Shown: positions 1,516 through 52,845, counted from the first letter of the stretch. The stretch: 64,000 nt of DNA from Planctomycetota bacterium (GCA_041398705.1 JAWKUI010000009.1:111372-175371); one strand, 5' to 3'. The notes: generated by a model not told the origin, from the sequence alone. Numbers and translations: made by a program.

Positions 1516-1698
1516 GGCGTCTGAATCCCGGGTATTGCAGCCTGGCGAAATCGCTTTCGCCGGGCGGCTTTGTTTTTCAGCATAACGCGGGCCGCTGTGC
1601 ACCCCGGACCGCCCCCGGCGGCCCCCTGACGCCGAGTCGTTGGCCCCTTGCCCAAAGCCAACCTTTCGCGGTCTTCCCCTCGCCGTTATCGTGAGTGC

Positions 1699-3414
1699 AT
1701 GAGCCCGCTCTTCTCCGCTGCCCCACTGGTGGCCTGCGCCGCGCTTGCCTGGGCCACGCCCCGAACCGCCCCGCCCATGGATCGCATCACCGGCCAGCCC
1801 TTCGCCACCCGCTCGGTTTCCCTCGCCACGAACGGCATGGCGGCCACCAGTCATCCGCTGGCGACGATGATCGCCCTGGACGTGATGAAAGCCGGCGGCA
1901 ACGCGATCGATGCGGCCATCGCGGCCAACGCCTTCCTCGGGTATGGCGAACCCACCGGCAGCGGGATCGGGGGGGACCTGTTCGCCATCGTGTGGAGCGC
2001 CAAGGAGAAAAAACTCGTCGGACTGAACGGTTCGGGACGTTCGCCGCGCAGCCTCGACCTGGAGACCCTGCGCAGCAAGGTCGATGGCAAGATCCCGCCG
2101 CACGGCCCCTTGTCCGTCAGCGTGCCCGGCTGCGTGGACGGTTGGTACATGCTGCACGAACGCTTCGGTTCCATGCCAATGGAACAGCTGCTGGCCCCCA
2201 CGATCGAAGCCGCGTACGAAGGTCGCCCGGTGCCGCAGACGATCGCCTATTACCTCGAGCGCAGCGCACGGGTGCTCGCGAAGTACCCCGGTTTCGCGGA
2301 GACGTGGATGCCCGGCGGCCATACGCCGCTCGAGGGCGAGCGCTTTGCCAACCCGCGCCTAGCACGGACCTTGAAGCGCATCGCCGAAGGGGGCCGCGAC
2401 GTCTTCTACAAGGGCGAGATGGCGCGTACGATCGCCGACTTCGTGCAATCCCAGGGTGGGTACCTGAGCGAAGAAGACCTGGCCCTGCACCATGGCGAAT
2501 GGGTCGAGCCGGTCTCCACCACCTACCGCGGCGTCGAGCTTTGGGAGCTGCCCCCCAATGGGCAAGGCATCGCCGCCCTGCAGATTCTCAACCTGCTCGA
2601 GCCGTATGACTTGAAGGCCATGGGCCACCAGAGCGCGGACTACGTGCACCTGTTCACGGAAGCCAAGAAACTCGCGTTCGAAGATCGCGCGCGCTTCTAC
2701 GCCGACATGGACTTTGCGGACGTGCCGGTGGATGGGCTCATTTCCAAGGAATACGCGGCGGAGCTGCGCAAGCTCATCGATCCGAAGAAAGCCCAGCAGA
2801 AGTACACCGCCCTGCCGAAACCCCTCGAAGAAGGCGACACGGTCTACCTGTGCACCGCCGACAGCGAGGGCAACATGGTGTCCTTGATCCAGAGCAACTA
2901 CCGCGGCATGGGGTCGGGCATGGTGCCCACGGGCCTCGGCTTCATGCTGCAGGACCGCGGCGAGCTTTTCGATCTGACAGAAGGCCACGCGAACACCTAC
3001 GCACCCGGGAAACGTCCTTTCCACACCATCATCCCCGCCTTCGTGACCAAAGAGGGTGCGCCGTACATGGCCTTTGGCGTGATGGGCGGCGCCACCCAAC
3101 CCCAGGCCCACGCCCAAATCCTGATCCACATGCTCGACTTCGGCATGAACCTGCAGGAGGCCGGGGACGCGGCGCGCATCGTGCACACCGGGTCTTCTCA
3201 GCCTACCGGCGAACGCATGGAGGACGGCGGCAAGTTGCACCTGGAGGATGGTTTCGGGCCGGAGCTGCGCGCCGAACTCACCAAACGCGGCCACCACCTG
3301 GCACCGTCTCCGGGCATCTACGGCGGCTACCAAGCGATCCTCTGGGACGCGAAGAACCGCGTATACCAGGGCGCCAGCGAATCGCGCAAGGACGGGTTCG
3401 CGGCGGGGTACTAG
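1699..3414 (+). CDS. ggt: gamma-glutamyltranspeptidase
   Basis: GGT motifs are present: 'MKAGGNAIDAAIAANAFLG..EPTGSGIGGDLF', nucleophile-Thr context 'EEGDTVYLCTADSEGNMVSLIQSNY', and 'FGVMGGATQPQAHAQ'. Start placed at ATG 1699 (MSPLFSAAPLVACAALAWA, signal-like) rather than the upstream ORF start at 1648. Confidence 0.9.
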   Translation: MSPLFSAAPLVACAALAWATPRTAPPMDRITGQPFATRSVSLATNGMAATSHPLATMIALDVMKAGGNAIDAAIAANAFLGYGEPTGSGIGGDLFAIVWSAKEKKLVGLNGSGRSPRSLDLETLRSKVDGKIPPHGPLSVSVPGCVDGWYMLHERFGSMPMEQLLAPTIEAAYEGRPVPQTIAYYLERSARVLAKYPGFAETWMPGGHTPLEGERFANPRLARTLKRIAEGGRDVFYKGEMARTIADFVQSQGGYLSEEDLALHHGEWVEPVSTTYRGVELWELPPNGQGIAALQILNLLEPYDLKAMGHQSADYVHLFTEAKKLAFEDRARFYADMDFADVPVDGLISKEYAAELRKLIDPKKAQQKYTALPKPLEEGDTVYLCTADSEGNMVSLIQSNYRGMGSGMVPTGLGFMLQDRGELFDLTEGHANTYAPGKRPFHTIIPAFVTKEGAPYMAFGVMGGATQPQAHAQILIHMLDFGMNLQEAGDAARIVHTGSSQPTGERMEDGGKLHLEDGFGPELRAELTKRGHHLAPSPGIYGGYQAILWDAKNRVYQGASESRKDGFAAGY

Positions 3415-6012: not shown

Positions 6013-6495
6013 TTAGTGCTCCGACACTTCGATGTCCCCCAACCGGTAGATCCAATCGACATGATCCCCGGGCAATAGCCCTCCCCACAGGAGCTTGAGC
6101 GCTTTCGAAGAGTGAACCGGCGGGCCCGAGATCCCCAGCCCGCCCCCACCGGGCACCCCGAGGCGGAGTTGCAGAGAAAGTTGCCCCTCCAGGTCTCCGC
6201 GTCCGATGCGAAGCCGGAATGGGGTGACGGTTTGATTGCTGATCAGAATGCAGGTCCCGGCGAGCAGGATTTGGTTGCCGCCGTGCTGGCCTGCGTGGGC
6301 CAGTTGAAAGCCGTCGATGCTCTCACGCTTCCATTCGGGGTACCCCTTGGCCAGGGCGGCGGGAAGCCAAGTCTCCAGGACTTCCAACAGATGGGCCATC
6401 GGTTCGCTGGCCGTGGGCTCCCCTACCGAAATGCCCAGGAGTACCCGCTCGAGGAGTTCTGCGATCGTGTTCTCAGGCGAGTTCGGCATCAACAT
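6013..6495 (-). CDS. hypothetical protein
   Basis: ORF on the same strand, downstream of the TlpA-like gene. Start set at the internal Met (MLMPNSPEN...) because the ORF N-terminus looks like non-coding read-through. No motif recognised. Confidence 0.35.
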   Translation of the reverse strand: MLMPNSPENTIAELLERVLLGISVGEPTASEPMAHLLEVLETWLPAALAKGYPEWKRESIDGFQLAHAGQHGGNQILLAGTCILISNQTVTPFRLRIGRGDLEGQLSLQLRLGVPGGGGLGISGPPVHSSKALKLLWGGLLPGDHVDWIYRLGDIEVSEH

Positions 6496-6709
6496 GCATC
6501 GGGGGCAGATCCGAGTGCGGTCCCCGGGCACGGAAGAGTCTACTCGACTCGGTGGCAGGCGGAGAGTGCACGGAATCCACTCGGTCGCGCCCGCGAACGT
6601 CGGGGGATTCGCCGGCTGCGCTTGGCACCTTGAGCACGCAGCGGACCCAGGTGCGCAAGGCACCTGGGTCCGCTGAGCCGGGGCGGAAGCGCCCCGAGGC
6701 CGCTGGAGG

Positions 6710-7801
6710 TTACTTCGACTCCTGGGCCTTCTTGATCTCCGCCACGAGCTTCGCGATCTTCTCGTCGTAGGCTTCGCCGTTGTGGCCGGTGCCGAGGATC
6801 TTGCCGTCGGGTCCGATCAGGAAGTAGGTCGGGTAGGCGTTGACCTGGTAGAGCTTGGCGATGAGGCCTTCGGGTCCTTGGTAGGCCGCGCGCCAGGTGA
6901 CGCCGTACGTGGCCAGGCCTTCGCGGAACTCCTTGGGTTCATCGCCGGTGTTGACTCCGAGCAGGACGAAAGGGTCGTCTTTGTGGCGCTCCACGAGCGC
7001 CTTGAGGTGCGGCATGCCGCCCTTGCACGGGCCTCACCAGAAGCCGAAGAAGTCGACCAGGACCACCTTGCCGCGGAAATCGGACAGGCGCCAGGACTCC
7101 CCGTCGATGGAGGTTCCGATGAAGTCCGGAGCCATTTCCCCCACCGCGATGTTGGCCTTGTTGATCTGCGCGTTGGCGCGCAGGGCCCACTCGGACTTGG
7201 GGTGTTTGTCGATCAGCTCCTGCAGCAGGGCCTTGCCCTGATCCCGTTGGGCCTGGTCCTTGGACTCCAGCATCAAGCTGCCCATGTGGTACTGGGCGCG
7301 CACGCGAGCGGGCTCACCCGCCTTGTCGTTCTGCTGCACGCGCTTCAGCAGGTTGGCGCGCTGCTCGACGGACAAGTACTTGTTGTCCGCCAGGGTTCCC
7401 AGCATGTCCGGGTACCAGTCGGCCCCGGCGTAGTCGTTCACCAGGCTCTGGAAGTAGTCCAGGGCCTGGGCCGCGCGCTGGTCCTTGTCGACCCCGAGTT
7501 CCTTCTGGTGGTCGAGCATCCAAAGCAGACCGCGGCCGTCGCCCCCGTCCACCAACGCCTGGAAGCGCGGTTGGAACTTCTGGGCCGGCGGATTCGCGCG
7601 CAGCTCGCGGCGTTCGGCCAGGCTCTCGGTGTTGCGGATGGCTTCGCGGAAGGCCTTTTCAGCCTGGTCGAACTCGGCGACCAGGGCTTTGTAGGCATCC
7701 GGGGCCGCGGTTTCGACCTTGGGCGGGTCTTCGGGGGCCACACGCGCAGGTGCGGCCGGGGCTACGCCCAAAAGGGCGAGCAGGGCTAGGGGGAACATCA
7801 T
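6710..7801 (-). CDS. TlpA/ResA-like thiol:disulfide oxidoreductase, candidate selenoprotein (in-frame UGA at 7034-7036 read as Sec), with N-terminal helical domain
   Basis: ORFs 7034..7870 and 6710..7015 share one frame and are separated only by TGA. Read-through gives 'APDFIGTSIDGESWRLSDFRGKVVLVDFFGFW-U-GPCKGGMPHLKALVERHKDDPFVLLGVN', a WCGPC thioredoxin-fold motif with UGA at the first Cys. Signal peptide MMFPLALLALLGVAPAAPA starts at ATG 7801. Confidence 0.75.
7005..7023 (-). promoter_or_regulatory. SECIS-like hairpin 3' of the in-frame UGA
   Basis: Minus-strand AGGGCGG-CAUG-CCGC(A)CCU forms 7 bp with one bulge. It begins 10 nt after the UGA, and its G-containing apical loop starts 17 nt after the UGA. 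That is within the spacing described for bacterial SECIS elements. Confidence 0.45.
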
Positions 7802-7947
7802 GGCGTCGTTGGTTTCGTTTGCGGCAGGGGCCGCGGACCCTCCCAGTATCGCACGCGGGTGGAAATGCACCAGGAGTGGCTCTGTAAGGACTTACGCAGG
7901 GAGCTCCCGGGCGGTCCGCGGCCCCGGCCCTGGTACCCTGGGCCGCC

Positions 7948-12943: not shown

Positions 12944-13714
12944 ATGCTCACTCCCGACTCGATCCGCGCGCGCCTCGAAGCAGAGGCGCAGGCGCAAGGC
13001 CTAGAAATCTTGCACGCCTGCGAAAGCGGTTCCCGGGCATGGGGCCTGGCATCCACGGACAGCGACTACGATGTGCGGTTCGTGTATCGCCGCCCGTTGG
13101 GGCGCTATCTGGAAATGCAACGGCCTGTAGACGTCATCGGGCCGGTGTTGGAAGGCGAACTCGACTTCGCCGGTTGGGATCTGCCCAAGTTTGCGGCCCA
13201 CCTCGTCCGCAGCAACCCGAGCGTGCTGGAATGGCTCGGGTCTCCGCAATTCTACCTGCATGACAAGGGCTTCCTCGACCAGGCGCGCGATTTGGCGAAT
13301 CGGTACTTTGACGTGCGGCGCGCCGTGCACCACTACGTTGGAATCGGCCAGAGCGCGTGGGATGGCGGCCGCCAGGCCGACGGCACTTGGAACCTGAAGA
13401 AGTTCTTCTACTTCGCCCGCCCGACCTTGGCAGCGGATTTCATCGTGCGCCACGGCGCGATGGCCCCGGTTCCGTTCGATGAGCTGTACGCCCATTGCGG
13501 CGACGCTGGCCTGTCGGCAGAACTCGAAGACCTCGTGCGCCACAAAGCTGGCGTATCCGAGGGCACGGACTTTCCGGTCCCCGGCCCGCTGGAAACGGAG
13601 CTCGTCCGGCGCCGGACGGACGCTGCGCGCGCAGCGGACGCATTCCCCATGCTCGCCCCCGATCCCGAAGCCGCGAATCGGTTCCTGCTCGAACAATTCG
13701 GAGTGCCCCTGTGA
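12944..13714 (+). CDS. Pol-beta-superfamily nucleotidyltransferase, RlaP/PF10127-like
   Basis: 'ESGSRAWGLASTDSDYDVRFVY' carries the GS-x-G...DxD Pol-beta NTase motif, followed by 'GWDLPKFAAHLVRSNPSVLEWL' typical of this family. Confidence 0.7.
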   Translation: MLTPDSIRARLEAEAQAQGLEILHACESGSRAWGLASTDSDYDVRFVYRRPLGRYLEMQRPVDVIGPVLEGELDFAGWDLPKFAAHLVRSNPSVLEWLGSPQFYLHDKGFLDQARDLANRYFDVRRAVHHYVGIGQSAWDGGRQADGTWNLKKFFYFARPTLAADFIVRHGAMAPVPFDELYAHCGDAGLSAELEDLVRHKAGVSEGTDFPVPGPLETELVRRRTDAARAADAFPMLAPDPEAANRFLLEQFGVPL

Positions 13715-14784
13715 AGTTGGAAGACGTGGAAGCGGGCAAGGGCCTTCTGTTGCGCTGCCGCGCGGGCAGCCACGCCTACGGACTTGCGACGGCGGAATCC
13801 GATGAGGATTTCCGCGGCGTGTTCCTGCAGCCGCAGGAAACGCTCTACGGCCTGTTGCCCTGCAAGCAAATCAGCGATGCGCGCCACGACCGCACCTATT
13901 GGGAGCTCGGCCGATTCGTGGAGTTACTCCTGCAGAGCAATCCCGGTGCGCTCGAGCTGCTTGCGAGCCCGCCGGATGCCGTGCTTTTTCGCCATCCGGT
14001 CATGGAACCGCTCAGGACCCAGGACTTTTTGAGCAAAGCGAGCATTCCAGCCTTTACAGGCTACGCGGAAGGCCAAATCCGGCGCGCACGGGGGCTGAAC
14101 AAGAAGGTGCACAACCCCATGCCGCGCGAGCGCAAGTCCGTGCAGGACTTCTGCCATGTGATCGAAGGCGGGCGTAGCCAACGCTGGGAGCATTGGCTCG
14201 CTCGGTCGGGACATGCGGCGAATTGCTTGGGCCTTGCGCCCATCGCCAAGGCAGCCGACTTGTACGGACTGTATCTGGACGCGGAAGGCACCTGGGCCCG
14301 CGGCATCTCTTCGGGTCCGGAGGCCAATGAGGTGCAGCTCAGCGAGGTGCCGCCTGGCCTTGCCCCCATCGCTTACCTGCACTTCGGGCGCCAAGGGTAC
14401 TCGGACTTCTGCAAGCGTCACCGTGAGTATTGGGTCTGGGTCAACGAGCGCAACGAGGCGCGCTACCAGAACACCGTGGCCCATGCGCAGGGCTACGACG
14501 CGAAGAACATGATGCACACCCTGCGGCTCCTCGATACCGCCCTGGGCATCATCCAAGACGGCACGGTGGTGGTGCGTCGCCCCGACAGGGAGTTCCTGCT
14601 GGCGGTCAAAGCCGGCCACTACTCCCTGGCCGAGGTGCTGGACATGGCGGAGGAACGCTTGGCCCGCATCGCCGCGGCTTTGCCCCACTGCAACCTGCCC
14701 GATCGCCCCGACGCCCAGCGCGCCGAAGCCACCCTGGTGCGCATGCGGCAGGAGCTGTATGGCGCGGAACTAGATCGCCCCTGA
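13711..14784 (+). CDS. Pol-beta-superfamily nucleotidyltransferase, RlaP/PF10127-like (second, longer paralog)
   Basis: GTG 13711 overlaps the upstream stop (GTGA). 'RAGSHAYGLATAESDEDFRGVF' and 'WELGRFVELLLQSNPGALELL' are present. The upstream part of ORF 13495.. is Arg-rich read-through and was discarded. Confidence 0.65.
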   Translation: MKLEDVEAGKGLLLRCRAGSHAYGLATAESDEDFRGVFLQPQETLYGLLPCKQISDARHDRTYWELGRFVELLLQSNPGALELLASPPDAVLFRHPVMEPLRTQDFLSKASIPAFTGYAEGQIRRARGLNKKVHNPMPRERKSVQDFCHVIEGGRSQRWEHWLARSGHAANCLGLAPIAKAADLYGLYLDAEGTWARGISSGPEANEVQLSEVPPGLAPIAYLHFGRQGYSDFCKRHREYWVWVNERNEARYQNTVAHAQGYDAKNMMHTLRLLDTALGIIQDGTVVVRRPDREFLLAVKAGHYSLAEVLDMAEERLARIAAALPHCNLPDRPDAQRAEATLVRMRQELYGAELDRP

Positions 14785-16668: not shown

Positions 16669-17031
16669 TCAGTAGGAGACGCAGGGAGCGCCCACGGAGA
16701 GGAACTCCACCAGGCTCGCGCCGCCGACGATGGTGGCGCCGGGGATCAACTTGCTTTCGTCAAGGCCGCGCTTTTTGAAGCAGGGCGAGCAGACCCAGAT
16801 GATGCCGCCGGCTTGGGCGAACTTGGAGATCAGTTCCCCGAGCGGGGCAAACCCTTCTTCGTGCACCCCGTCGGCGTACCCCTGCTGGCAAAGGTGCACG
16901 GCCTCGGTGGACAGGAACATGACGGTCTCCTTCTCGGAGGCCACCGCAGCGTTGGCCACGACGAAGGCGACGGTGGCCTTGTCGGTGTCGTTTTTGGCGG
17001 AGGTCAGACTGACGCAGAATCGGTTGTTCAT
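16669..17031 (-). CDS. DsrE/DsrF-like sulfur-relay family protein
   Basis: About 120 aa, 'MNNRFCVSLTSAKNDTDKATVAFVVANAAVA..ETVMFLSTEAVHL...IIWVCSPCFKKRGL...GATIVGGASLVEFL', matching the DsrE-like fold pattern. Start at ATG 17031. Confidence 0.6.
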   Translation of the reverse strand: MNNRFCVSLTSAKNDTDKATVAFVVANAAVASEKETVMFLSTEAVHLCQQGYADGVHEEGFAPLGELISKFAQAGGIIWVCSPCFKKRGLDESKLIPGATIVGGASLVEFLSVGAPCVSY

Positions 17032-17091
17032 GGGAGGAGCTTTGGGGGGGTCTGGGGAGGGGGAACGCCGCACGCTGGCGGTCGGTGGAGG

Positions 17092-17673
17092 TCAGGACTG
17101 CGGTTTGCGCGCAATCCAGTAGAGGGGGTGTTCGTGGAAGACGAGCGCATTGCCGGTGACGCGGCACCAGGCGGGCAGGTCCCCCGGGGCGCCGGGATCG
17201 GTGGCGCGCACCTGCAGCACGCCGCCGGGTTCGAGCTGGGCGAGGCGCGTGCGCAGTTCGAGCACCAGGTCGCCGCAGCCCATGTCACCGGCATCCCAGG
17301 TGTCCTGGACATTCGGGGCGGCGGACGCGGCGGCCGTCGGGGCCGCCGCCACGGAAATCGGCGCCGTGGGCAGGTAGGGCGGCCGGGATTCGCCAGCTTC
17401 CGCCAGGCGTTGTTCGGAGTGGCGCCAGCCGGCTTTGTAGCAGTCGAGGCGCGCGATGTGCGCGAGGGCGCGGTGCACGAGGGCGCCGGGGGCTTCGCCT
17501 TGGGCCTGGGCCAGGCAAGGGATGCAGGCCGGCGCGTTCTTGTAGCCGAGCAACAGACTCAACACGGCGTCCTGACCGATCAAGGCCTGACCGCAGCGGC
17601 ACGGCTGGCCCCACTGGTCCTCGGCCCAGGCGATCACATCTTCGGCGCGCAAGCTGCTCTTCGCGGGATTCAT
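17092..17673 (-). CDS. two-domain protein: Cys-rich N-terminal domain of unknown function plus C-terminal TusA/SirA-like domain
   Basis: C-terminus 'WDAGDMGCGDLVLELRTRLAQLEPGGVLQVRATDPGAPGDLPAWCRVTGN' parallels the TusA-like domain of 15921..16661. The N-terminus carries CRCG, CIPC and one further Cys. Confidence 0.55.
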   Translation of the reverse strand: MNPAKSSLRAEDVIAWAEDQWGQPCRCGQALIGQDAVLSLLLGYKNAPACIPCLAQAQGEAPGALVHRALAHIARLDCYKAGWRHSEQRLAEAGESRPPYLPTAPISVAAAPTAAASAAPNVQDTWDAGDMGCGDLVLELRTRLAQLEPGGVLQVRATDPGAPGDLPAWCRVTGNALVFHEHPLYWIARKPQS

Positions 17674-21950: not shown

Positions 21951-23303
21951 TTACTGCGGCCGCTTCCAGTTGCCCTTGGACTCGTTCAGGTAGGTCACGA
22001 GCTCCGCGACCGGCACCGTTTCCTGCTCCATCGAATCGCGGTGGCGCACGGTGACGATGTCCTTGGCCAGGGTTTCCCCGTCCACGGTAATGCAGAACGG
22101 CGTGCCGACTTCATCCTGGCGGCGATAGCGACGGCCAATGGCCGCCTTGTCGTCGTAGAAGGTGCTGAGGCGGGCCTTGCGCAGGGTGGCGGCGATTTCG
22201 CGGGCCTTTTCGGGCATGCCTTCCTTGTTGACGAGCGGGAAGACGCCGGCGGTGATCGGGGCGATCTCGGGGTGGAAGTGCAGCACCACGCGCGTGTCCT
22301 TCTCGAGCTGCTGCTCCTCGTACGCGTCGATCATGAAAGTCAGCGCCATGCGGTTGATGCCGCCGGCGGGTTCGATCACGTAGGGCGTGTACTTCTCCTT
22401 GGTCTGCGGATCGAAGTACACCAGGTTTTCACCGGTCGCTTCGCTGTGGCGCGACAAGTCGAAGTCCGTGCGGTTCGCGATGCCTTCGAGCTCGCCCCAG
22501 CCGAACGGGTAGAGGTATTCCACGTCGCTGGTCGCCTTGGCGTAGTGCGCCAGTTCCTTCGGATCGTGGGCGCGCAGGCGCAGCTTGTCGGGGTTGATGC
22601 CGTAGTCCTTGTACCACTGGAAGCGCGTTTGGCACCAGTGATCGAACCACTGCTCGTCCTCGGTCGGCGGCACGAAGAACTCCATCTCGGCCTGTTCGAA
22701 TTCGCGGGTGCGGAAGACGAAGTTGCCGGGGGTGATCTCGTTGCGGAAGGACTTGCCGATCTGCGCGATGCCGAAGGGCGGCTTGAGGCGCGCCGACTCC
22801 ATCACGTTCTTGAAGTTCAGGAAGATGCCCTGGGCGGTTTCCGGACGCAGGTAGGCGATCGAGGAGCTGCCCTCCATGGCCCCCACCTGGGTCTTGAACA
22901 TCAGGTTGAACTCGCGAGGTTCGGTCAGCTCGCCGTCGCACTGGCCCGGGCACTTGCTCGGCTTCATCGGGCAGCGCGCGTCTTCAAGCTTGTCCGCCCG
23001 GAAGCGCCCCTTGCAGGTCTTGCAGTCGACCATCGGGTCGGAGAAGCCGCCCACGTGGCCGGAGGTCTCCCAGACCTTGGGGTGCTGGATGATGGCGGAG
23101 TCCAGGCCCACCACATCGGCGCGCTCGGTGACCATCGCCCCCCACCAGGCCTCCTTGACCCGGCGCAGCAGCTCGACCCCAAGGGGGCCGTAGTCGTAGG
23201 TGTTGCCCATGCCCCCGTAGATCTCGGAGGCTTGGAAGATGAACCCCCGGCGTTTGCACAGGGAGACGATCGAGTCCATCAAGGAGGGCGGTTGTTTGGC
23301 CAT
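21951..23303 (-). CDS. glyQS: glycine--tRNA ligase (class II, alpha2 type)
   Basis: 'IVSLCKRRGFIFQASEIYGG..NTYDYGPLG', 'GKSFRNEITPGNFVFRTREFEQAEMEFF', 'IEPAGGINRM', and an anticodon-binding C-terminus 'RRYRRQDEVGTPFCITVD'. Confidence 0.92.
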   Translation of the reverse strand: MAKQPPSLMDSIVSLCKRRGFIFQASEIYGGMGNTYDYGPLGVELLRRVKEAWWGAMVTERADVVGLDSAIIQHPKVWETSGHVGGFSDPMVDCKTCKGRFRADKLEDARCPMKPSKCPGQCDGELTEPREFNLMFKTQVGAMEGSSSIAYLRPETAQGIFLNFKNVMESARLKPPFGIAQIGKSFRNEITPGNFVFRTREFEQAEMEFFVPPTEDEQWFDHWCQTRFQWYKDYGINPDKLRLRAHDPKELAHYAKATSDVEYLYPFGWGELEGIANRTDFDLSRHSEATGENLVYFDPQTKEKYTPYVIEPAGGINRMALTFMIDAYEEQQLEKDTRVVLHFHPEIAPITAGVFPLVNKEGMPEKAREIAATLRKARLSTFYDDKAAIGRRYRRQDEVGTPFCITVDGETLAKDIVTVRHRDSMEQETVPVAELVTYLNESKGNWKRPQ

Positions 23304-23523
23304 GGCTGGGGTCCGGGACGTTGGTTTGCGTCAGGGGCGTGCCATCCTAGCGCGGCGGCCCGGCGAGATCAGGTCCCAGGCGCCCGAAGTCGCGGCCACC
23401 GGGCGACTTTCGGCCGGTCCGGGCGTCTCGGAGTGCGCGGATCCGGCCCCCCCGTGGATCCGGCCAGGAGGACCCGCCGAGCGGGGTACGAATGCACCGC
23501 AATCCGGGCTACACTGCCCGATC

Positions 23524-24786
23524 ATGGTGCCCCCCACGACCCAACTGAAGCCGGCCCGCACCTGGCGGGCGCCCCTGGTCTCCTCCGCCCAGCAGGGCCC
23601 GATCCGCGAGGAACTCGACCGCCTCGAACAGCTCGTGCTGGACGGCGGTCGGCTCTCGCCCGAAGAGGCCCTCTTCTTGCACGCCAAAGCCGACCTGCTC
23701 GGCCTGGCGCGCATGGCGACGGCGGTGCGCGAGCGCCTCAACCCGGACGCGATCGTCACCTACATCGTCGACCGCAACCTGAACCCCACCAACGTCTGCG
23801 TCACCGACTGCGGGTTCTGCGCGTTCTACCGCTCGCCGGGCCACCGCGAGGCCTACGTGCTGAGCCGCGACGAGATCTACAAGAAGGTCGAGGAGACCGT
23901 GCGCCTGGGTGGGCAGCAACTCCTGATGCAGGGCGGCCACCACCCGAACGTGCTCAGCGATTGGTGGTGCGAGCTGATCCGCGACATCAAGGCGCGCTTC
24001 GACATCAACTGCCACGCCCTCTCCGCCCCCGAGATCGAACACTTCGCCCGCATGGAGAAGCGCCCGATCGAGGCCGTGGTTCAGGATCTCGTGGAAGCCG
24101 GCCTGGGGTCCCTACCGGGCGCCGGGGCCGAGATGCTGGTCGAGCGGGTGCGCGAGATCATCGCCCCGAAGAAGACGCACACCGACGACTGGCTCGACGT
24201 GCACCGCAAGGTGCACCAGGCGGGGCTGCGCAGCTCGGCCACGATGATGTACGGCAACGTCGAAACGATCCCCGAGCGCATCGAACACCTGGTGCGCCTG
24301 CGCGATCTGCAGGACGAAACGGGGGGGTTCACGGCCTTCGCCTGCTGGAATACCCAGCCCGAGGGCGTGCCCGACGAAGCGAGTTTCCCGCGCAAGACCA
24401 CCCCGGCGGAGTACCTGCGCATGCAGGCCATCGCGCGCATCTTCCTGGACAACTTCCAGCACATGCAGACCAGCTACGTGACCCAGGGCATGAAGCTGTC
24501 CCAGGTTTCCTTGATGTACGGCTGCGACGATTTCGGCGGCACGATGCTCGAGGAGAACGTCGTCAGCGCGGCCGGCTGTTTCCATCTGGAATCGATCCAG
24601 ACGATCGAACGCATGATCACCCGCGCCGGCTACCGCCCGCTGCAGCGCAACTCCTGGTACGGCATCGTCGACCCGCGCTGGGAGGGCGACACCTGGCCCA
24701 GCCGCCGGGAAGAGTCCGCCACCCACGCCGCCGCGCCCAAGGCCTGGCGCGACATCGCCACCGCCAGCCGTCCCCAAACCGCCTGA
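23524..24786 (+). CDS. mqnC: radical-SAM cyclic dehypoxanthinyl futalosine synthase (MqnC-type)
   Basis: 'VTYIVDRNLNPTNVCVTDCGFCAFYR' (CxxxCxxC), 'LLMQGGHHPN', 'ERIEHLVRLRDLQDETGGFTAF', 'IARIFLDNFQHMQTSYVTQG...GCDDFGGTMLEENVVSAAG'. The MqnC-versus-MqnE assignment rests on remembered family patterns. Confidence 0.75.
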   Translation: MVPPTTQLKPARTWRAPLVSSAQQGPIREELDRLEQLVLDGGRLSPEEALFLHAKADLLGLARMATAVRERLNPDAIVTYIVDRNLNPTNVCVTDCGFCAFYRSPGHREAYVLSRDEIYKKVEETVRLGGQQLLMQGGHHPNVLSDWWCELIRDIKARFDINCHALSAPEIEHFARMEKRPIEAVVQDLVEAGLGSLPGAGAEMLVERVREIIAPKKTHTDDWLDVHRKVHQAGLRSSATMMYGNVETIPERIEHLVRLRDLQDETGGFTAFACWNTQPEGVPDEASFPRKTTPAEYLRMQAIARIFLDNFQHMQTSYVTQGMKLSQVSLMYGCDDFGGTMLEENVVSAAGCFHLESIQTIERMITRAGYRPLQRNSWYGIVDPRWEGDTWPSRREESATHAAAPKAWRDIATASRPQTA

Positions 24787-24790
24787 TCCC

Positions 24791-25936
24791 ATGGTCCTGC
24801 CCACCCAAGTAGAGCGCCGCATCGAACGCGCCGGCCTGGCGAAGATCCGCGACAAGGTCGTGGCCGGCGAACGGCTTTCCTTCGACGAGGGCGTGACCCT
24901 CTACCGCTCTCCCGACCTGCACGCGATCGGCGCGCTGGCGAACTTCGTGCGCGAGCGCAAACACGGCGACCGCACCTTCTTCAACGTCAACCAGCACATC
25001 AACTACACCAACGTGTGCAACAAGTTGTGCCGGTTCTGCTCGTTCCAGCGCCTTCCCAAGCAGGAGGGCGCCTACGTGATGCGGCCCGAGGAGGTCGCGC
25101 AGAAGATCCGCGAACAGCTGCACGAGCCGGTGACCGAGGTGCACGTGGTCGGCGGCGTCTATCCGCGCCTGCCCTACTCGTACTACATCGACATCCTGCA
25201 GGCGATCAAGCGCGAACGTCCGTCGATCCACATCAAGGCCTTCACGATGGTCGAACTGATGCAGATCGCGAAGCTGGCGGGCAAACCCCTTGCCGAGGTG
25301 CTGCCCGAGCTGGTGGCAGCGGGCCTGGGCTCCTGCCCCGGCGGTGGCGCCGAAGTGTTCGCCGAGCGCGTGCACAAGGAGGGGTACCACGTCAAGAACA
25401 CCGGCGACCAGTGGCTCGATGCCGCGCGCACCGTGCACAACGCGGGGCTCAAGAGCAACTGCACGATGCTGCACGGCCACATCGAGACGATCGAAGAGCG
25501 GGTCGACCACCTCAACCGCCTGCGCCTCCTGCAGGACGAAACCGGCGGCTTCCAGGCCTACATCCCGCTTTCGTTCCACAACGAGGGCAACGAGTGGTCG
25601 CACCTCCCGTCCCCCACGGGCCTCGACGAACTGCGCGAGATCGCGGTGGCGCGCCTCTTGCTCGACAACATCGAGCACATCAAAGCCTACTGGATCATGC
25701 TGGGCATCCCGATCGCCCAGACGGCCCTGTGTTACGGCGCGAACGATGTGGACGGCACCGTGGTCGAAGAGAAGATCTACCACGAAGCCGGCGCCACCAC
25801 GCCCCAGGCCGTGGAACGCGAGGAACTGATCCGCTGGATCCGCGACGCGGGCCGGATCCCGGTCGAACGCAACACGATCTACGAAGTGATCTGGAGCGAG
25901 AGCGAAGCGGAACGCGCGTTGCCGGCCGGGGTCTGA
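24791..25936 (+). CDS. mqnE: radical-SAM aminofutalosine synthase (MqnE-type)
   Basis: 'VNQHINYTNVCNKLCRFCSF', 'EVHVVGGVYP', 'HIKAFTMVE', 'GGGAEVFAERV', 'TMLHGHIETIEERVDHLNRLRLLQDETGGFQAYIPLSF'. Confidence 0.75.
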   Translation: MVLPTQVERRIERAGLAKIRDKVVAGERLSFDEGVTLYRSPDLHAIGALANFVRERKHGDRTFFNVNQHINYTNVCNKLCRFCSFQRLPKQEGAYVMRPEEVAQKIREQLHEPVTEVHVVGGVYPRLPYSYYIDILQAIKRERPSIHIKAFTMVELMQIAKLAGKPLAEVLPELVAAGLGSCPGGGAEVFAERVHKEGYHVKNTGDQWLDAARTVHNAGLKSNCTMLHGHIETIEERVDHLNRLRLLQDETGGFQAYIPLSFHNEGNEWSHLPSPTGLDELREIAVARLLLDNIEHIKAYWIMLGIPIAQTALCYGANDVDGTVVEEKIYHEAGATTPQAVEREELIRWIRDAGRIPVERNTIYEVIWSESEAERALPAGV

Positions 25937-34430: not shown

Positions 34431-34889
34431 CTACCAGTAGCGACCGGACACGCCGATCACGACGATGCAGACCCCGAGGAACAGGTTCGTGCTGACGAGC
34501 GGACGGATGCGGCCCATGGCCTGGCCTCCGGCGGGCCAATCCTGGCAAGCGACCGCCTTCTGCAGCGCGGCCCAAGGACGGAAGTACAACCCGGCGAAGA
34601 TCAAGGTCATCACCCAGGCGATACCCAGCATCAGGTGCACGTGGAGGCGGGCTCCCGCCATACCCCCGAAGTACCCGAAGAGCAGCGCGTAGCCGGTGGC
34701 GTGCAGCACGGCAATCGAAAGCCAGACCAATGGGAAGAAGCGGCGGAGCACCCCATGCCAGACGGTCAAACGCTGCGGGGGTTCGAGGTGTTCGACGAGG
34801 GTCGGGCGCAGGGCGAAGTGCACGAAGAGCATGCCCCCCACCCAAAGGGTGGCGGCCAGGCCATGCAGGGCGATCCACAAACTGATCAT
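34431..34889 (-). CDS. small 4-TM membrane protein, CopD-family-like
   Basis: Start at ATG 34889. 'MISLWIALHGLAATLWVGGMLFVHFALRP' resembles the LHxxAAxxWxGG helix of CopD-family proteins. 152 aa with four hydrophobic helices. Family call is tentative. Confidence 0.45.
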   Translation of the reverse strand: MISLWIALHGLAATLWVGGMLFVHFALRPTLVEHLEPPQRLTVWHGVLRRFFPLVWLSIAVLHATGYALLFGYFGGMAGARLHVHLMLGIAWVMTLIFAGLYFRPWAALQKAVACQDWPAGGQAMGRIRPLVSTNLFLGVCIVVIGVSGRYW

Positions 34890-35112
34890 GGCCCGATGGT
34901 ACTGCGGAAGGGAGCCCGTTGCAGCCGGTTTCACCCGGTGCCCACCGCGAAGGCGGGGTGGCCGGATTCGGGCGTTCGGGCAACCGGCCTTTGCACCCAC
35001 TTTGCACCCGACCCGGATCGGCGCACGCGCGGCCGGCTGGCCGCCGACAAAGCCGGGAAAAGTGAAGGTTCCGGGCGGAAAGCGGAAGCGTGGCGACCTA
35101 GACTTCTCGGCC

Positions 35113-35904
35113 ATGAGCGAAACCCTGCGCGTCGGATCGGTGCCCTACCTTGTGGGCCGCCCCCTGGACCACGGCCTGTCCCGGGAGGAGGGAATCACGT
35201 TGGAGAAGCACGTGCCGGCCCGCCTGGTGGAGCTGCTCCGGGCCGGAAAACTGGACGTGGCACTGGTCAGCTCGATCGAGCTGTTCTGCATGCCGGGGTA
35301 TTCGTACATCCCCGGCCTCTGCGTGGGCGGCAAAGGCGCGGTTTCGAGCGTGCAAGTCTTCCTGCGCCGCCCGATCGAGCAGGTCGACAGCATCGCCATG
35401 GACCCGGCCAGCCGCACCTCCCAGGCCCTGGTCCAGGTCCTGCTCGCCGACCGCAAGGGGGGCCCGCCGTCCTACCACTTCCCCACCCTCGGCCAGGACC
35501 CGCGCGAATTGCCGTGCAGCGCTTGGCTGTCGATCGGCGACCGCGCCCTGCGCCACTTCCACTCCGGCGCCAGCCAGGTGTTCAACCCCTCCTCCGCCTG
35601 GACGCGCAGCACCGGCCTGCCCTTCGTCTTCGCGGCTTGGATCGTGCGCCCCGGCGTCGACATCGAACCGCACCTGCCCGCCTTCCAACGCTCCTACGAA
35701 GCCGGTCGCGCGGCTTCGGGCGAATTGGCGCGCAACGCGGCGCGCACCTGGTCCCTGCCTTCCAAAGTCATCGAAGACTACCTGCGCCAGGAATGCGTCT
35801 ACTCCATGGGTGGGGAAATGGATGACGCTTTGCAGCTCTTCGGCGAGCGCTCCCGGGTCCTGGGATTGGCCTCCGACGAGGCCGTGCCCACCGCCTGCCG
35901 CTGA
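35113..35904 (+). CDS. mqnA: chorismate dehydratase (MqnA), futalosine pathway
   Basis: 'LRVGSVPYLVGRPLDHGL', 'PARLVELLRAGKLDVALVSSIE', 'GLPFVFAAWIV' (VitK2_biosynth/PF02621, MqnA-type rather than the MqnD 'SPCPND' type). ATG 35113 lies within the longer ORF 34696... Confidence 0.8.
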   Translation: MSETLRVGSVPYLVGRPLDHGLSREEGITLEKHVPARLVELLRAGKLDVALVSSIELFCMPGYSYIPGLCVGGKGAVSSVQVFLRRPIEQVDSIAMDPASRTSQALVQVLLADRKGGPPSYHFPTLGQDPRELPCSAWLSIGDRALRHFHSGASQVFNPSSAWTRSTGLPFVFAAWIVRPGVDIEPHLPAFQRSYEAGRAASGELARNAARTWSLPSKVIEDYLRQECVYSMGGEMDDALQLFGERSRVLGLASDEAVPTACR

Positions 35905-42313: not shown

Positions 42314-44077
42314 GTGAGCAGTCCCACCCTTTTCGACCCGGCTGAGACCGAAGTGCCGAAGAAACAACGCAAGAGCAAGGCCAAAGCCGAGGCCAGTACC
42401 GAGGCCGAATCCACCCCGACCGAAGCTCCGGCCCCCGAAGCCCCCCAGGGCGGCGGTGGCGGCGTCAGCAAGGCCCGCGACATCTCCGTGGCGGAGTTCT
42501 TCGAGAAGAACCGGCACATGCTGGGCTTCGATTCCCCCACGAAAGCCCTGCTGATGGCGGTCAAGGAGGCGGTCGACAACAGTCTGGACGCCTGCGAAGA
42601 GGCCGGCATCCTGCCCGACATCACGGTCGAGATCACCCCCACCAGCGAAAAGCACTTCCTGATGGCGGTCGAGGACAACGGCCCGGGCATCCCCGATACC
42701 CACATCGGCAAGATCTTCGGCAAGCTGCTGTACGGCTCGAAGTTCCACAAGCTCAGCCAGAGCCGCGGCCAGCAGGGCATCGGCATCTCGGCCGCCGGCA
42801 TGTACGGCAAGCTGACCACCGGCAAACCCGTCAAGGTCATCTCCAAGACCCGCCGCGGCCGCCCGGTCGAAACGGTGCTGTCGATCGATTCCCTGCGCAA
42901 CAAGCCGGAGATCCATTCCTCCCAGGAGGTCGCCTGGGAGGGCCGCAGCCACGGCACGCGCGTCGAGATTGAGATGGAGGCCATCTACAAGAAGGGCACC
43001 CGCTCGGTCGACATGTACCTCAAGCAGACCGCGATCGCGAACCCGCACCTGACCGTGCGGTACCGCGATCCGGGCGGCACCGAGTTCGTGTACGAGCGCA
43101 ACACCAAGGAGAAGCCGGCCAAAACCGTCGACATCAAGCCGCACCCGCACGGCGTCGAACTCGGCCGACTGATCACGATGCTCAAGGAGACCACCAGCCG
43201 CTCGCTGTCGGGTTTCCTGCAGGAGGAATTCTGCCGCGTCGGCGCTACCCTGGCGGGCCGCATCATCGATGCCGCCGGCCACGGCCTGACGACCAAGTCC
43301 TACCCCACCCGCACCGCGCGCGAGCAGGCGCAATACCTGCACGATGCGATCCAGAAGACCAAGATCAGCGCACCGCCCTCGGACTGCATCGCGCCGATCG
43401 GCCAGGAGCTCTTGCTCAAGGGCCTGGAGAAGGAGATCACCGCCGACTTCTACGTGACCGCCACGCGGCCGCCGGCAGTCTACCGCGGCAACCCCTTCCA
43501 GATCGAAGTCGGCCTTGCCTACGGCAAACCCGGCGGCGTGGGCCTCGAGGTCACCGACGAAGGGCGCATCCAGAAGAAGTCCAAGGCCGAGTTGGCCACC
43601 GAGGACCTGGTCGCCAACGCCGACGAACCCGCGCGCGTGCTGCGTTTCGCCAACCGCGTGCCGCTGCTCTACCAGCAGGCCGGCTGCGCGATCACGAAGA
43701 GCATCATCTCCACCAACTGGCGCTCCTACGGTTTGACCCAACCCAAAGGCAGCCTGCCGATCGCCCCCATGGCGATCATGGTGCACATCGCTTCGGTCTG
43801 GGTGCCGTTCACCTCCGAGTCCAAGGAAGCCATCGCCGCCTACGACGAGATCATCGCCGAGGTAAAGAAGGCCCTGCAGGACGCCGGTCGCAAACTCGGC
43901 ATCTACATCCGCAAGGGCAAACGCCTGAAGCGCGAATTCGACAAGCGGGAGTACATCGAGAAGTACATCCCCCACATCGGCCTGGCCCTGCAGGAGATCC
44001 TCGACCTGACCGACAAGACCCGCGACGAGGCCGTGGAAACCCTCGAAGACGTGCTGCACCGCTCGCGTAAATTCTGA
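42314..44077 (+). CDS. top6B: DNA topoisomerase VI subunit B
   Basis: Bergerat ATPase boxes '[13 protein letters not shown]' (N-box), 'VEDNGPGIP' (G1) and '[12 protein letters not shown]' (G2), followed by H2TH/transducer-length sequence. GTG start at 42314. A Lys/Ala/Glu/Pro-rich N-terminal tail of about 50 aa is present. Confidence 0.9.
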
Positions 44078-44085
44078 TCCCGACC

Positions 44086-45279
44086 ATGGCGAAGAAGAAA
44101 GCAACCAAGAAGGCCGCGACGAGCAAAGCCCCGGCCTCCAGTTCCGCCGCCAAGAAGGCGGTACCGGCCCTCTCCGAGCTGGATCGCAAGACCCTCGGCG
44201 TGATCACCACCACCGCGGACCGGGTGCACAAACGCATCCAGGACCGGGTGCTGCCCGAGCTGAAGTTCCCGGTGCGTTCGCTGCAGAACGTGAACTACAC
44301 GAAATCCGGCGGGTACTTCGAACTCGGCAAGAGCCGCAAGGCGCGCGCCTTGACCGTCAACACGGTCAAGAGTTTCGCCCAGACCCTGCGGCTGATGGCC
44401 CTGTCGAAGGAGATGGTCGAAAACGACAACTTCGCGACGAAACGGGAGGCGTACTACATCTCGAAGAACTGGAGCGAAGCCAAGTTCAACCAGCAGCCCG
44501 AGTCGGACGCGGTGATGGACGACATCGAGGCCCTGGCGAGCCTCGAGGGCCTCACCCGCGAGCAACTGCGCTACCGCCCCGAAGAACACGGCGGCGCCCT
44601 CGCCGGCGAGCTGATCGTGATCGACCGCGACCGCACCACCGGAGCGGAGATCCGCATCGACTGCACGGCCATGGGCACCGGGGCCTACACCATCCCCTCC
44701 TCGGTTGAGCACCTCAAGTTCGAGACCAAAGCCAAGTTCATCCTGGCGATCGAAACCGGCGGTATGTTCCACCGCCTCAACGACCACCAGTACTGGCGCA
44801 CCGCGAACTGCATCCTGATCTCCATGGGCGGCGTGCCCAGCCGCGCCCAGCGCCGGTTCATGCGGCGCTTGTCCGAGGAGAAGAAGCTGCCCCTGTACTG
44901 CTTCGTGGACTGCGATCCGTACGGTATCGCCAACATCTACCGCACCCTCAAGGTGGGCAGTGGTAACGCGGCGCACATCAACCGCTTCTTCTGCGTGCCG
45001 AACGCCGAATTCCTGGGGGTCACGCCCCAGGACATCCTCGACTTCAAACTCGAAGATGCCACCCACCCCCTCAAGCCGGTCGACGTCAAGCGGGCCAAGG
45101 ACGCCCTCAAGAACGACCCCTTCTTCAAGGCGCACCCCGCCTGGAACAAGGCCATCAACCACCTGCTCAAGATGGGCGTGCGTGCCGAACAACAGGCCCT
45201 CGCGAAGTGGGGTCTCAACTTCGTGATCGAGGAATACCTGCCGCGCAAGTTGAAGAACAAGAAGAGCTTCCTTCCCTGA
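44086..45279 (+). CDS. top6A: DNA topoisomerase VI subunit A (Spo11 family)
   Basis: Catalytic-Tyr context 'TKREAYYISKNW'. Toprim residues in 'FILAIETGGMFHRL' (Glu) and 'LYCFVDCDPYGIANIY' (DxD). Located 8 nt after top6B. N-terminal 'MAKKKATKKAATSKAPASSSAAKKA' tail. Confidence 0.9.
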   Translation: MAKKKATKKAATSKAPASSSAAKKAVPALSELDRKTLGVITTTADRVHKRIQDRVLPELKFPVRSLQNVNYTKSGGYFELGKSRKARALTVNTVKSFAQTLRLMALSKEMVENDNFATKREAYYISKNWSEAKFNQQPESDAVMDDIEALASLEGLTREQLRYRPEEHGGALAGELIVIDRDRTTGAEIRIDCTAMGTGAYTIPSSVEHLKFETKAKFILAIETGGMFHRLNDHQYWRTANCILISMGGVPSRAQRRFMRRLSEEKKLPLYCFVDCDPYGIANIYRTLKVGSGNAAHINRFFCVPNAEFLGVTPQDILDFKLEDATHPLKPVDVKRAKDALKNDPFFKAHPAWNKAINHLLKMGVRAEQQALAKWGLNFVIEEYLPRKLKNKKSFLP

Positions 45280-47166: not shown

Positions 47167-48933
47167 TCAGTTGCCGGTCACCACGATGTTGTCCAGGTAC
47201 GCGTACTCGTTGGTACGGTTCGCGTTGGTGGAGAAGGTCAGGGTGATGGTGCCGCTGTTCAGGTTGTTGGCGGTCACCGTCGAGTGGATGAAGCTGCCGG
47301 AGTTGCCGGTGAAGGTGGCGCTACCTTTGGTCACGCCGCCCTGCACCACGGTCACGGTCAGCGCTTCCCCGCTGTCGTACCCCGAGGCGCGGCGGTCGAA
47401 TTCCACCGTCAGCGAGGTCGAACCCGCCGGAGCGAAGGTCGTGCGCAGCCAGGAGCTGCGGCGCAGACGGGCACCGTAGCCCCCGTTGCCGTAGCTCGAG
47501 CCGATTACCACGTAGTTGGTGCTGCTACGCGACCAACCGCCCGCGGTGAACCCGCCGCTCTGGAAGTCCTCGGTGAACAACGACCCCCCGCCGGTGCCGC
47601 CGGCTTCGGTGGTGAAGGACCAAGTGGCCGACGAGGTGCTACCCGCGCTGTTGTTCGCGACGACGCGCCAGAAGTAGGTGGTGCTGTTCGCCAGCCCCGT
47701 CGGAGCCCAGCTCGTGCCGCTGACCGACGCGGCCAGGGGCGGGTTGCTGGTGGTGCCGAAGTACACGTTGTAGCCGGTCGCGCCGGTGGAGGCGGCCCAG
47801 CCAAGGCTCACGTTCGTGGCCACCGCGGTGGCGCCGTTCGCCGGCGACGGGCTGGTCGGTGCAGTCGGCGGGTTGCCGGGGTTCGTGCCGCCTTCCCAAC
47901 CGGTCAGATCCACACGCCAGTTCTCCAGGGTGCAGCGCATACGGTTCACCTGCTCGGCGCTGAAGTGGTTCATGCACGCGTCTTCCGAGTAGTCCATGAA
48001 GTTCTGCACCGGGTCGGGCGTGCCGCAGGTCGTGCGCGAGCAACCCGAGTAGTTCGGCGATTGTTCCGTGTTGGTGTCACAGATCAGGTCGCCGTTGCTG
48101 TAGCAGCTTCCCGTGTGGCAGCCGCCCTGGAACGTGTGGTACAGGCCCAGGTAGTGCCCCACTTCGTGGGTCGTGGTGCGACCCAGGTGATACGGGGTGT
48201 AGTTGGTGTAGCCGAAGGAGTTCCACAGGATGCGCACCCCGTCGAAACTCGCCCCCACCACGCCGCCGCCCGAGGGCACGTACGCGTACCCGAGGTTGCC
48301 GCCGGCGGTGTTGGTGTAGATGTTCAGGTAGCGGGTGGTATCCCAACCGATCGACGCGGCGTAGCTGCCCCCATCGTTGTACCAGGTGGTGTTCTGGTGG
48401 CGGGTGATGCCGGTGGTCGCGTTGCCGCTCGGATCGACGGTCGCCAGGTGGAACTGGATGTTGCCACCGCTCAGGGTGCCGAAATCCTCGTTCAGGATCT
48501 GGATCTGCTCGAAGATGCGCGCATCGGGGATGTTGCCGGTACCGGAGCTCGAGTAGAGCACGTGCACGACGACCGGAATGTCGTAGAGCACGCCGCCGCC
48601 GGGGTTGTAGGAGGCATCGGGCACGGTGAGGCTGGCCGAGCAGTCGTTGACGCTGCCCGCGAACCACGCCGGGGTCGGGTGGGGTTCGCGCTCCATACCG
48701 CAGCGCGCGCCGTTGTTCATGAAGAAGCTCGACGACAGGTACTCATCCCAGTCCTGGAAGACGGTGGTACCGCTGCCATCGCTGGCCACGATCAGACCGC
48801 TGTCCAGTTGGTAGACCTGGAAGCGGCCGGGCTGGAACAGGTTGGCGTCCTGAACCTGCGGGGCAGCGAAAGCGGGCGCGGAGGAGAGGCAAAAGGCGCC
48901 GAGCGACGCCAGAAGGAAGGGTCGTGTTTTCAA
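47167..48933 (-). CDS. secreted M43 (pappalysin/ulilysin-like) zinc metalloprotease with FN3-like and C-terminal beta-sandwich domains
   Basis: 'TTHEVGHYLGLYHTFQGGC' (HExxHxxGxxH). FN3-like 'PSPANGATAVATNVSLGWAASTGATGYNVYFGTTSNPP...TTYFWRVVANNSAG'. Start proposed at TTG 48933, giving the signal peptide (M)KTRPFLLASLGAFCLSSAPAFA/AP. Confidence 0.8.
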   Translation of the reverse strand: MKTRPFLLASLGAFCLSSAPAFAAPQVQDANLFQPGRFQVYQLDSGLIVASDGSGTTVFQDWDEYLSSSFFMNNGARCGMEREPHPTPAWFAGSVNDCSASLTVPDASYNPGGGVLYDIPVVVHVLYSSSGTGNIPDARIFEQIQILNEDFGTLSGGNIQFHLATVDPSGNATTGITRHQNTTWYNDGGSYAASIGWDTTRYLNIYTNTAGGNLGYAYVPSGGGVVGASFDGVRILWNSFGYTNYTPYHLGRTTTHEVGHYLGLYHTFQGGCHTGSCYSNGDLICDTNTEQSPNYSGCSRTTCGTPDPVQNFMDYSEDACMNHFSAEQVNRMRCTLENWRVDLTGWEGGTNPGNPPTAPTSPSPANGATAVATNVSLGWAASTGATGYNVYFGTTSNPPLAASVSGTSWAPTGLANSTTYFWRVVANNSAGSTSSATWSFTTEAGGTGGGSLFTEDFQSGGFTAGGWSRSSTNYVVIGSSYGNGGYGARLRRSSWLRTTFAPAGSTSLTVEFDRRASGYDSGEALTVTVVQGGVTKGSATFTGNSGSFIHSTVTANNLNSGTITLTFSTNANRTNEYAYLDNIVVTGN

Positions 48934-49280
48934 GGCAGTGTTGGACAGGGTAGGCAGGGCCCTGATACGGGGTGGGAGAGGATGGGGAACCGGCAATCGG
49001 CGCCCTCTGGTCCGAATATGCCAACCGGTCTCAATCCCGCCAGGGCCTTTTTCCCGGGGTCAGAAACTGTCCCCAAAGCGGGCGGATCGCGACGAATCGT
49101 CAGTGTCCGAAACCGGGACGGGACTACCGGGGCCGGGTTCGGCGAAGCCGTGGACCCCCGCCAGGGGCCCCCCAAGGCCGTGTCGGAACTGTAATCGGGA
49201 ATTTTCCGGCACTGACAATGCCGTTCGGCAAAGTGTCGACGACTCCCTATCCCTGCTCCCTCAACCGGAGGCTCTTCGCA

Positions 49281-51587: not shown

Positions 51588-51604
51588 GAGCAGGGGCGGA
51601 TCCC

Positions 51605-51644
51605 GGCCCCCCAGGCGTCTGCCGCCTGGGGGGCCTTTTTTTTT
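51605..51644 (+). terminator. rho-independent terminator of the multihaem cytochrome gene
   Basis: ggccccccaggcg-tctgc-cgcctggggggcc, a 13-bp perfect stem, followed by nine T. Confidence 0.85.
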
Positions 51645-51782
51645 GTCCCAGCGGTCGGCTGCACTGGGATTTCCTTCGCCCAAGACCAAACGGGGCGGCC
51701 GCGTCCGGCAAAGGGTGCTTCCACAGTGGACATCCCCTGGACCCGTGCCAAGATGGCGGCTCCAAGCCCCTGATCCCAACCC

Positions 51783-52769: not shown

Positions 52770-52791
52770 TCCGGGGATTGCCTCGAAACGC

Positions 52792-52832
52792 CGACGGGCC
52801 GCTTTCCCTGGGGAAGGCGGCCCGTCGCTTTT
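52792..52832 (+). terminator. rho-independent terminator
   Basis: cgacgggccgc...gcggcccgtcg, an 11-bp perfect stem that extends through tttccc/gggaag, followed by cTTTTc. It sits between convergent genes. Confidence 0.6.
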
Positions 52833-52845
52833 CAACCCGAATTCC

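Follow-up and report, generated by a model that had tools for sequence, protein, structure and literature searches.

A TGA codon at the active site of an exported TlpA/ResA-type protein from a Planctomycetota bacterium is very probably read as selenocysteine

The minus strand of a 64,000-nucleotide stretch of DNA from a Planctomycetota bacterium (hereafter the window) contains two open reading frames, 7034..7870 and 6710..7015, which share one common frame and are parted by a TGA at 7034-7036. As this codon falls exactly where a TlpA-like thioredoxin-fold protein would carry the first Cys of its active site, the locus raises the question whether the TGA ends a gene or is decoded as selenocysteine (Sec) within one. 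A preliminary description of the locus had named this TGA as the only break of the frame, and both the ORF list and the 363-codon translation confirm it: translated as a whole, 6710-7801 (-) has a sole internal stop, which lies between RGKVVLVDFFGFW and GPCKGGMPHLKALVERH. The minus strand reads GTC GAC TTC TTC GGC TTC TGG TGA GGC CCG TGC AAG GGC GGC ATG CCG CAC CTC AAG around this position, which corresponds to VDFFGFW, the stop, and GPCKGGMPHLK. Since one Pfam domain spans the stop and GC3 amounts to 0.86-0.90 on either side of the TGA (0.90 for the 107 codons downstream), it is confirmed that the frame across 7034-7036 is genuine and goes beyond a chance juxtaposition. We are highly confident that 6710-7801 (-) is a real selenoprotein gene for an exported TlpA/ResA-type protein with a Sec-UGA at 7034-7036. 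The complete gene would comprise 363 codons, starting with the ATG at 7801 and ending with the TAA at 6710-6712, with the Sec-UGA as codon 256.

The protein family was assigned with a Pfam query in which Cys was written in at the UGA position. A single AhpC-TSA match runs across the stop (residues 220-335, E=1.7e-19; PF00578, 70.4 bits with a cut-off of 26), and together with the matches to Redoxin (PF08534, 57.3 bits, cut-off 26.6) and Thioredoxin_8 (PF13905, 46.1 bits, cut-off 27) it places the read-through protein above the curated cut-off of three TlpA-like thioredoxin-fold models. In the PDB, the ResA structures of B. subtilis and B. anthracis match at E ~1e-17; their WCxPC pairs with W-UGA-GPC and their cis-Pro LPT with Y-P324-T, so that the C/U-x-x-C motif at the start of helix alpha-1 and the cis-Pro loop are both present. 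The TlpA/ResA-type thioredoxin fold is predicted to cover residues 220-340 (6782..7144, minus strand), with the active site W-U-G-P-C and the cis-Pro P324. Residue 256 (7034..7036, minus strand) would be the selenocysteine that replaces the nucleophilic Cys, and the TGC at 7025..7027 (-) encodes residue 259, the resolving Cys of U-x-x-C. C259 is invariant in alignment A2, and so are P324-T325.

No NCBIfam model reaches its cut-off with the read-through protein. The nearest ones are ResA (NF002854, 86.9 bits, cut-off 170) and TlpA (NF047696, 47.3, cut-off 230), both below cut-off, while DsbE (TIGR00385) scores 35.7 against 123 and the "ResA-like WAxxUGC motif-containing protein" model (NF041054) only 21.7 against 300, the motif here being W-U-G-P-C. 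The ResA score of 86.9 lies below 170 and the protein is therefore not a ResA orthologue; with the equivalog cut-offs failed, orthology to ResA, TlpA or DsbE was ruled out altogether. These comparisons suggest a protein that works like ResA or TlpA and is an orthologue of neither.

How the codon behaves in relatives is decisive for its interpretation. A search with the read-through protein returned two unusually short proteins as best matches, P0001 and P0004, both ending ...DFFGFW. When the word-indexed database was searched with a profile built from the N-terminal part, no more than six proteins matched, all six of which end ...DF[FWY]G[FD]W. In the contig DNA of the close homologues, TGA is present at that codon, and behind it the frame continues with [GA]PC and about 100 codons of the fold. 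The public gene calls divide this sequence into a product of 256-304 aa ending ...GFW/GDW and a separate "Thioredoxin_8" product of 94-98 aa. An exhaustive HMMER search with the N-terminal profile over 1.84 billion cluster representatives (50% identity) gave 241 clusters at E<=1e-30; the best 150 of these include 136 that terminate at the Trp, together with 12 full-length W-C-x-x-C proteins. The earlier expectation that gene callers would split or truncate this gene is borne out by these representatives and by the 94-98 aa remainder.

Scanning species-representative genomes identified 407 relatives, the best 80 of which are almost all from Planctomycetota MAGs with a few from Verrucomicrobiota, and a metagenome scan added 277 further relatives. 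Among the genomes that bear the TGA is the complete one of Rohdeia mirabilis Pla163 (L011; NZ_CP036290.1), in which the codon of the orthologue lies at about 4,139,063-4,139,065 (L011 position 10745). Taking genomes and metagenomes together, 145 of 151 distinct homologous sites carry TGA and the other 6 a Cys codon (TGC/TGT), TAA or TAG occurs at 0/151, and the frame runs on downstream in all 151. The full-length Cys homologue P0202 aligns end to end with the read-through protein (353 columns, 34% identity, E=2e-66) and has Cys opposite the UGA. The UGA thus faces Cys in P0202 as well as in ResA, and the proposal that it occupies the place of the N-terminal redox Cys of a TlpA/ResA-like fold, to be checked by aligning homologues, has held. 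At the level of sequence comparison, this pairing in combination with the conservation of the codon is the classical signature of a Sec/Cys pair. In many genomes we also observed two Sec paralogues, in tandem or nearby, at a distance of about 0.6-1.4 kb and both with a TGA and a hairpin of their own (loci L022, L037, L039, L051, L064, L066, L084, L096, L118 and L156).

Recoding of UGA in bacteria depends on an RNA structure 3' of the codon, and we analyzed this region with the U of UGA counted as nt 1. The SECIS element of Escherichia coli fdhF serves as reference: it presents an apical GGUC loop, the G and U of which contact SelB, in a minimal hairpin placed 11 nt past the UGA. Type A relatives (66 distinct sequences from the genome scan) contain a comparable element. 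They encode H-E-R-S-L-V as CAC GAG CGG TCG CTC GTG, with CGG and TCG each used in 66/66 sequences and CTC in 65/66, and the synonymous entropy of these codons is 0-0.3 bit versus 1.6-1.9 at flanking four-fold sites. The resulting 7-bp hairpin CACGAGC-GGUC-GCUCGUG covers nt 28-45, starts 24 nt past the UGA and is the form present in the majority of the family. In type B (59 distinct sequences including the window) the 5' arm of the type A hairpin is absent, and two other hairpins, HP1 and HP2, are found instead.

HP1 (AGGGCGG-CAUG-CCGC(A)CCU; 7005..7023, minus strand, nt 14-32; -9.0 kcal/mol, z=-1.9) starts 10 nt past the UGA, with its loop starting at 17 nt. Shuffled sequences fold at least as well in 8 of 200 cases, so that the hairpin by itself exceeds chance only marginally; about 30% of synonymous recodings are equal or better (p ~0.3), and HP1 of the window is indistinguishable from chance by this measure. 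The register of its helix drifts by 1-3 nt between relatives, which makes a fixed-register covariation analysis uninformative, and we compared the region with synonymous recodings instead, using control windows of the same genes. Here, the HP1 region beats the recodings (p<=0.05) in 71% of the 59 type B sequences versus 4% of the control windows. HP2 (GGCGCUC-GUG-GAGCGCC; 6985..7001, minus strand, nt 36-52; -11.6 kcal/mol, z=-4.2) starts 32 nt past the UGA and its loop, in which G43-U44 is invariant in type B, at 39 nt. Only 1 of 200 shuffles is as good, the comparison with synonymous recodings gives p=0.02-0.05, and the HP2 region beats recodings (p<=0.05) in 32% of the 59 type B sequences versus 6% of the controls. 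In its fixed register 85.5% of the type B cells are paired, and sliding the partner column lowers this share to 37-50%. Of the seven pairs, five have changed on both sides, and 0 of 500 shuffles reach the observed score. The exchange of C-G for A-U at pair 38:50 means Ala..Arg versus Glu..Leu in the protein. HP2 may be kept by paired non-synonymous changes, so that RNA pairing would shape the protein sequence at this place.

The preliminary description had put forward the hairpin at 7005-7023 as SECIS-like. It folds as described and its spacing is canonical, but it is non-significant in the window itself and the covariation lies in 6985-7001. A hairpin soon after the UGA with a small, G-containing loop is present in HP1 as well as in HP2. 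The standard bacterial SECIS predictor works in a range of 16-37 nt, and the HP2 loop at 39 nt is slightly outside. Compared with fdhF, the 7-bp GGUC-loop hairpin of type A, the position of HP1 at 10 nt and the invariant G-U of the HP2 loop are alike, whereas the type A hairpin and HP2 begin farther from the UGA (24 and 32 nt) and the window contains a pair of hairpins, neither of which has a GGUC loop. Rfam returned nothing at the gathering threshold for the whole window and nothing at E<=10 for 6940-7080. A UGA followed by a GGUC-loop hairpin was found in this TlpA-like family only and in no other gene in the 3.5 Mb scanned, which comprised both strands of all DNA retrieved. Among the six Cys forms, five are devoid of the type A hairpin, HP1 and HP2; the remaining one, a TGC member (L085 5758), retains an intact CACGAGC-GGUC-GCUCGUG and looks as if Sec had recently been exchanged for Cys and the SECIS left behind as a fossil. 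The region 3' of the UGA thus carries structure that is selected at the RNA level, and in our reading it acts as a genuine recoding signal. As candidate for SelB binding, HP2 has the better support because of its conserved register, its covariation and the invariant loop G43-U44, and HP1, which has an E. coli-like spacing, is also under selection in most relatives. It is possible, and we propose this only tentatively, that the TlpA-like family uses Sec by default (~91-96% of its members, in Planctomycetota and some Verrucomicrobiota) and that its recoding signal has been rebuilt from a GGUC hairpin into HP1 and HP2.

Genes for Sec incorporation were sought in the window and around the relatives. 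ARAGORN detected no tRNA-Sec in the 64 kb window, which contains no tRNA at all, or in about 110 flanking loci of relatives; the selenoprotein gene is not linked to the genes of the Sec machinery. In the same way, Pfam revealed no SelA, SelB or SelD among about 40 window ORFs, and selA, selB and selD are missing from the fetched flanks of the relatives. Planctomycetes with complete selA/B/C/D sets are documented (PMC4807772). Within the window, TGA closes most of the GC3-supported ORFs, and the Pfam match of a DDAH-like gene runs to within two residues of its own TGA. As UGA is the ordinary stop of most window genes, a reassigned code (genetic codes 4 or 25) was excluded. Other pairs of ORFs joined in the same frame by a TGA (17092, 39616) are ordinary adjacent genes or true ends, and no second selenoprotein candidate was found among such pairs of the window. 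A TusA-domain protein and a DsrE/DsrF-like protein lie back to back in the same frame with a TGA between them (16669-17673, minus strand); read-through was rejected in this case, as these are ordinary adjacent sulfur-relay genes.

Three other explanations for the TGA have to be weighed against selenocysteine. TGA is one base away from TGC and TGT, and a Cys-type TlpA-like gene could have acquired it by pseudogenization or by an error of sequencing or assembly. The same codon, however, is present at 145 of the 151 sites from independent assemblies and TAA or TAG at none, and the 107 downstream codons keep a GC3 of 0.90 together with the conserved residues of the fold. The conservation of the TGA has effectively refuted this explanation already, and we consider it barely credible. 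The locus might also consist of two genes, a 255-residue helical protein that ends at the TGA and a 101-residue protein that starts with the ATG at 7015, only 18 nt past the TGA; gene callers have annotated the relatives in this way. Such a split would fall between strand beta-1 and the active-site helix of the thioredoxin fold, and therefore neither half would be functional. Moreover, the 18 nt between TGA and ATG encode the invariant in-frame G-P-C, and the full-length Cys homologues show the fused architecture. The probability that we assign to two separate genes is close to nil.

A third explanation accepts the read-through and dispenses with selenocysteine: the UGA would be decoded by a near-cognate Trp or Cys tRNA, or the Sec machinery would have been lost, and the product would contain an ordinary residue or be mostly truncated. 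UGA is the leakiest of the stop codons, and no Sec machinery is seen in the 64 kb window. Against this stands the catalytic redox position, at which only Cys or Sec works, as well as the structured element after the UGA, which shows synonymous invariance or covariation and is gone in most Cys forms. In addition, related members of the phylum own selA/B/C/D (PMC4807772). Decoding without Sec is, in our opinion, very unlikely, and we maintain the selenoprotein reading of the gene.

The N-terminal part of the protein had been regarded as an unexplained helical domain. This is not borne out, as an AlphaFold model and weak profile matches describe it as an export signal followed by an all-alpha, TPR-like solenoid. 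Residues ~1-20 are hydrophobic and residues 1-31 are disordered in the model; the N-terminal hydrophobic export signal (MMFPLALLALLGVAPAAPAR...) is placed at 7742..7801 (-), with its exact extent and cleavage site predicted. The helical-repeat domain follows at residues 36-217 (7151..7696, minus strand) and is modelled as a ten-helix solenoid with pLDDT > 90. Its weak profile matches are to TPR_6, BamD and YbgF/CpoB. Foldseek returned nothing significant for this domain in the PDB (best E=0.047), and the non-significant likeness to the YbgF TPR domain, BamD and designed helical repeats corresponds to a generic TPR/helical-repeat resemblance. The Cys forms possess the helical domain as well. 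Its likely role, as we infer, is to recognize a client or partner on behalf of a reductase that works outside the cytoplasm.

UxxC thioredoxin-fold proteins are the commonest predicted kind of bacterial selenoprotein. They are an established class of predicted selenoproteins (Zhang, Fomenko & Gladyshev 2005, PMC1088965; Zhang et al. 2006, PMC1794560; 2026 review, PMC13188914, Table 1), and the gene described here is an additional member of it that does not overturn current understanding. The TlpA-like/AhpC-TSA fold, Sec in place of the first Cys of CxxC, a hairpin after the UGA and widespread Cys homologues are alike. Likened by description only, the known members differ from our protein in that the latter has an extra helical N-terminal domain of ~200 residues and is overwhelmingly planctomycete. 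For the planctomycete P1, candidates for a split "thiol-disulfide isomerase-like thioredoxin" selenoprotein have been listed (Kim et al. 2016, PMC4807772, Table S9). Compared by description only, they belong to the same phylum and protein class and are likewise annotated as two adjacent products, and that paper is without a family-wide analysis. The P1 candidates were scored SECIS "no" (PMC4807772), which fits the non-canonical spacing seen here. The Cys-type extracytoplasmic thiol-disulfide reductases ResA (PDB 1st9, 4nmu), TlpA (Bradyrhizobium, 1jfu) and CcmG/DsbE share the fold, the W-C-x-P-C context, the cis-Pro loop and the exported location; in contrast, the protein described here has Sec for Cys and the additional TPR-like domain. 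No link to cytochrome c maturation is evident from Pfam in the gene neighbourhood, which comprised about 40 window ORFs.

The genomic surroundings of the gene were inspected for further hints. G+C content of the window is 61-71%. Two perfect inverted repeats on the minus strand (6639..6696; 14-73 nt past the TAA) with arms of 7 bp (6679-6685 / 6690-6696) and 16 bp (6639-6654 / 6660-6675) are terminator-like without a U-run and overlap the nominal start of ORF 6013-6663; it is uncertain whether they belong to the gene. A gamma-glutamyltranspeptidase gene (1648-3414, plus strand) converges on the selenoprotein gene from 3.3 kb downstream and is also present near the orthologue in the type B loci L009, L010, L022, L028 and L043 (57-67% identity), while the divergent AMP-binding gene recurs in L010 and a PMT_2 gene in L001. 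These recurring neighbours support orthology with the type B loci. Periplasmic breakdown of glutathione may be functionally linked to the selenoprotein reductase.

Several observations concern the rest of the window. Topoisomerase VI, an enzyme that is mainly archaeal and eukaryotic and uncommon in bacteria, is encoded by two neighbouring genes, one for subunit B and one for subunit A (42314-45279, plus strand; Topo-VIb_trans with HATPase_c, then TP6A_N with Toprim). At 12944-14784 (+), two genes of the RlaP family (RNA repair pathway DNA polymerase beta family) follow one another. Two CofH/MqnC-type radical SAM genes and a VitK2_biosynth (MqnA-like) gene, at 23239-25936 (+) and 34696-35904 (+), point to the futalosine route to menaquinone. 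An 871-residue protein (48972-51587, plus strand) combines multihaem cytochrome motifs (MtrC/MtrF-like, cytochrome c7) with bacterial Ig/cadherin-like domains; the 1336-codon ORF at 48930-52940 that overlaps its gene on the opposite strand is probably an artefact of the high G+C content. A second exported thioredoxin-like protein (58989-60062, minus strand; Thioredoxin_7/DUF255-like) has an ordinary W-C-G-W-C, and the organism therefore also keeps Cys-type relatives.

Based on these data, we suggest that SelB and Sec-tRNASec would be recruited by the RNA structure 3' of the UGA, so that the codon is read as Sec and not as stop; HP2 (6985-7001) is the best-supported candidate for the recruiting element and HP1 (7005-7023) the one at canonical spacing. 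The mature protein would act outside the cytoplasm as a selenol/thiol disulfide reductase, with the helical domain selecting the client or partner, and a CcdA/DsbD-type electron shuttle in the membrane might return it to the reduced state. We infer, as did the preliminary description, that the organism decodes Sec, and the gene probably marks it as a selenium user. The protein would add an extracytoplasmic selenoenzyme with a putative client-binding helical domain. The gene and several hundred relatives, including the one from the cultured Rohdeia mirabilis Pla163, sit in public sets as a truncated "hypothetical" protein and a thioredoxin fragment, and a family model that allows U would mend these split annotations. 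Furthermore, the SECIS variants of the family differ in position and in the number of hairpins (one or two), a natural series with which the requirements of planctomycete SelB could be probed. A need for both hairpins would make the element a bipartite bacterial SECIS and would imply a SelB of unusually tolerant spacing.
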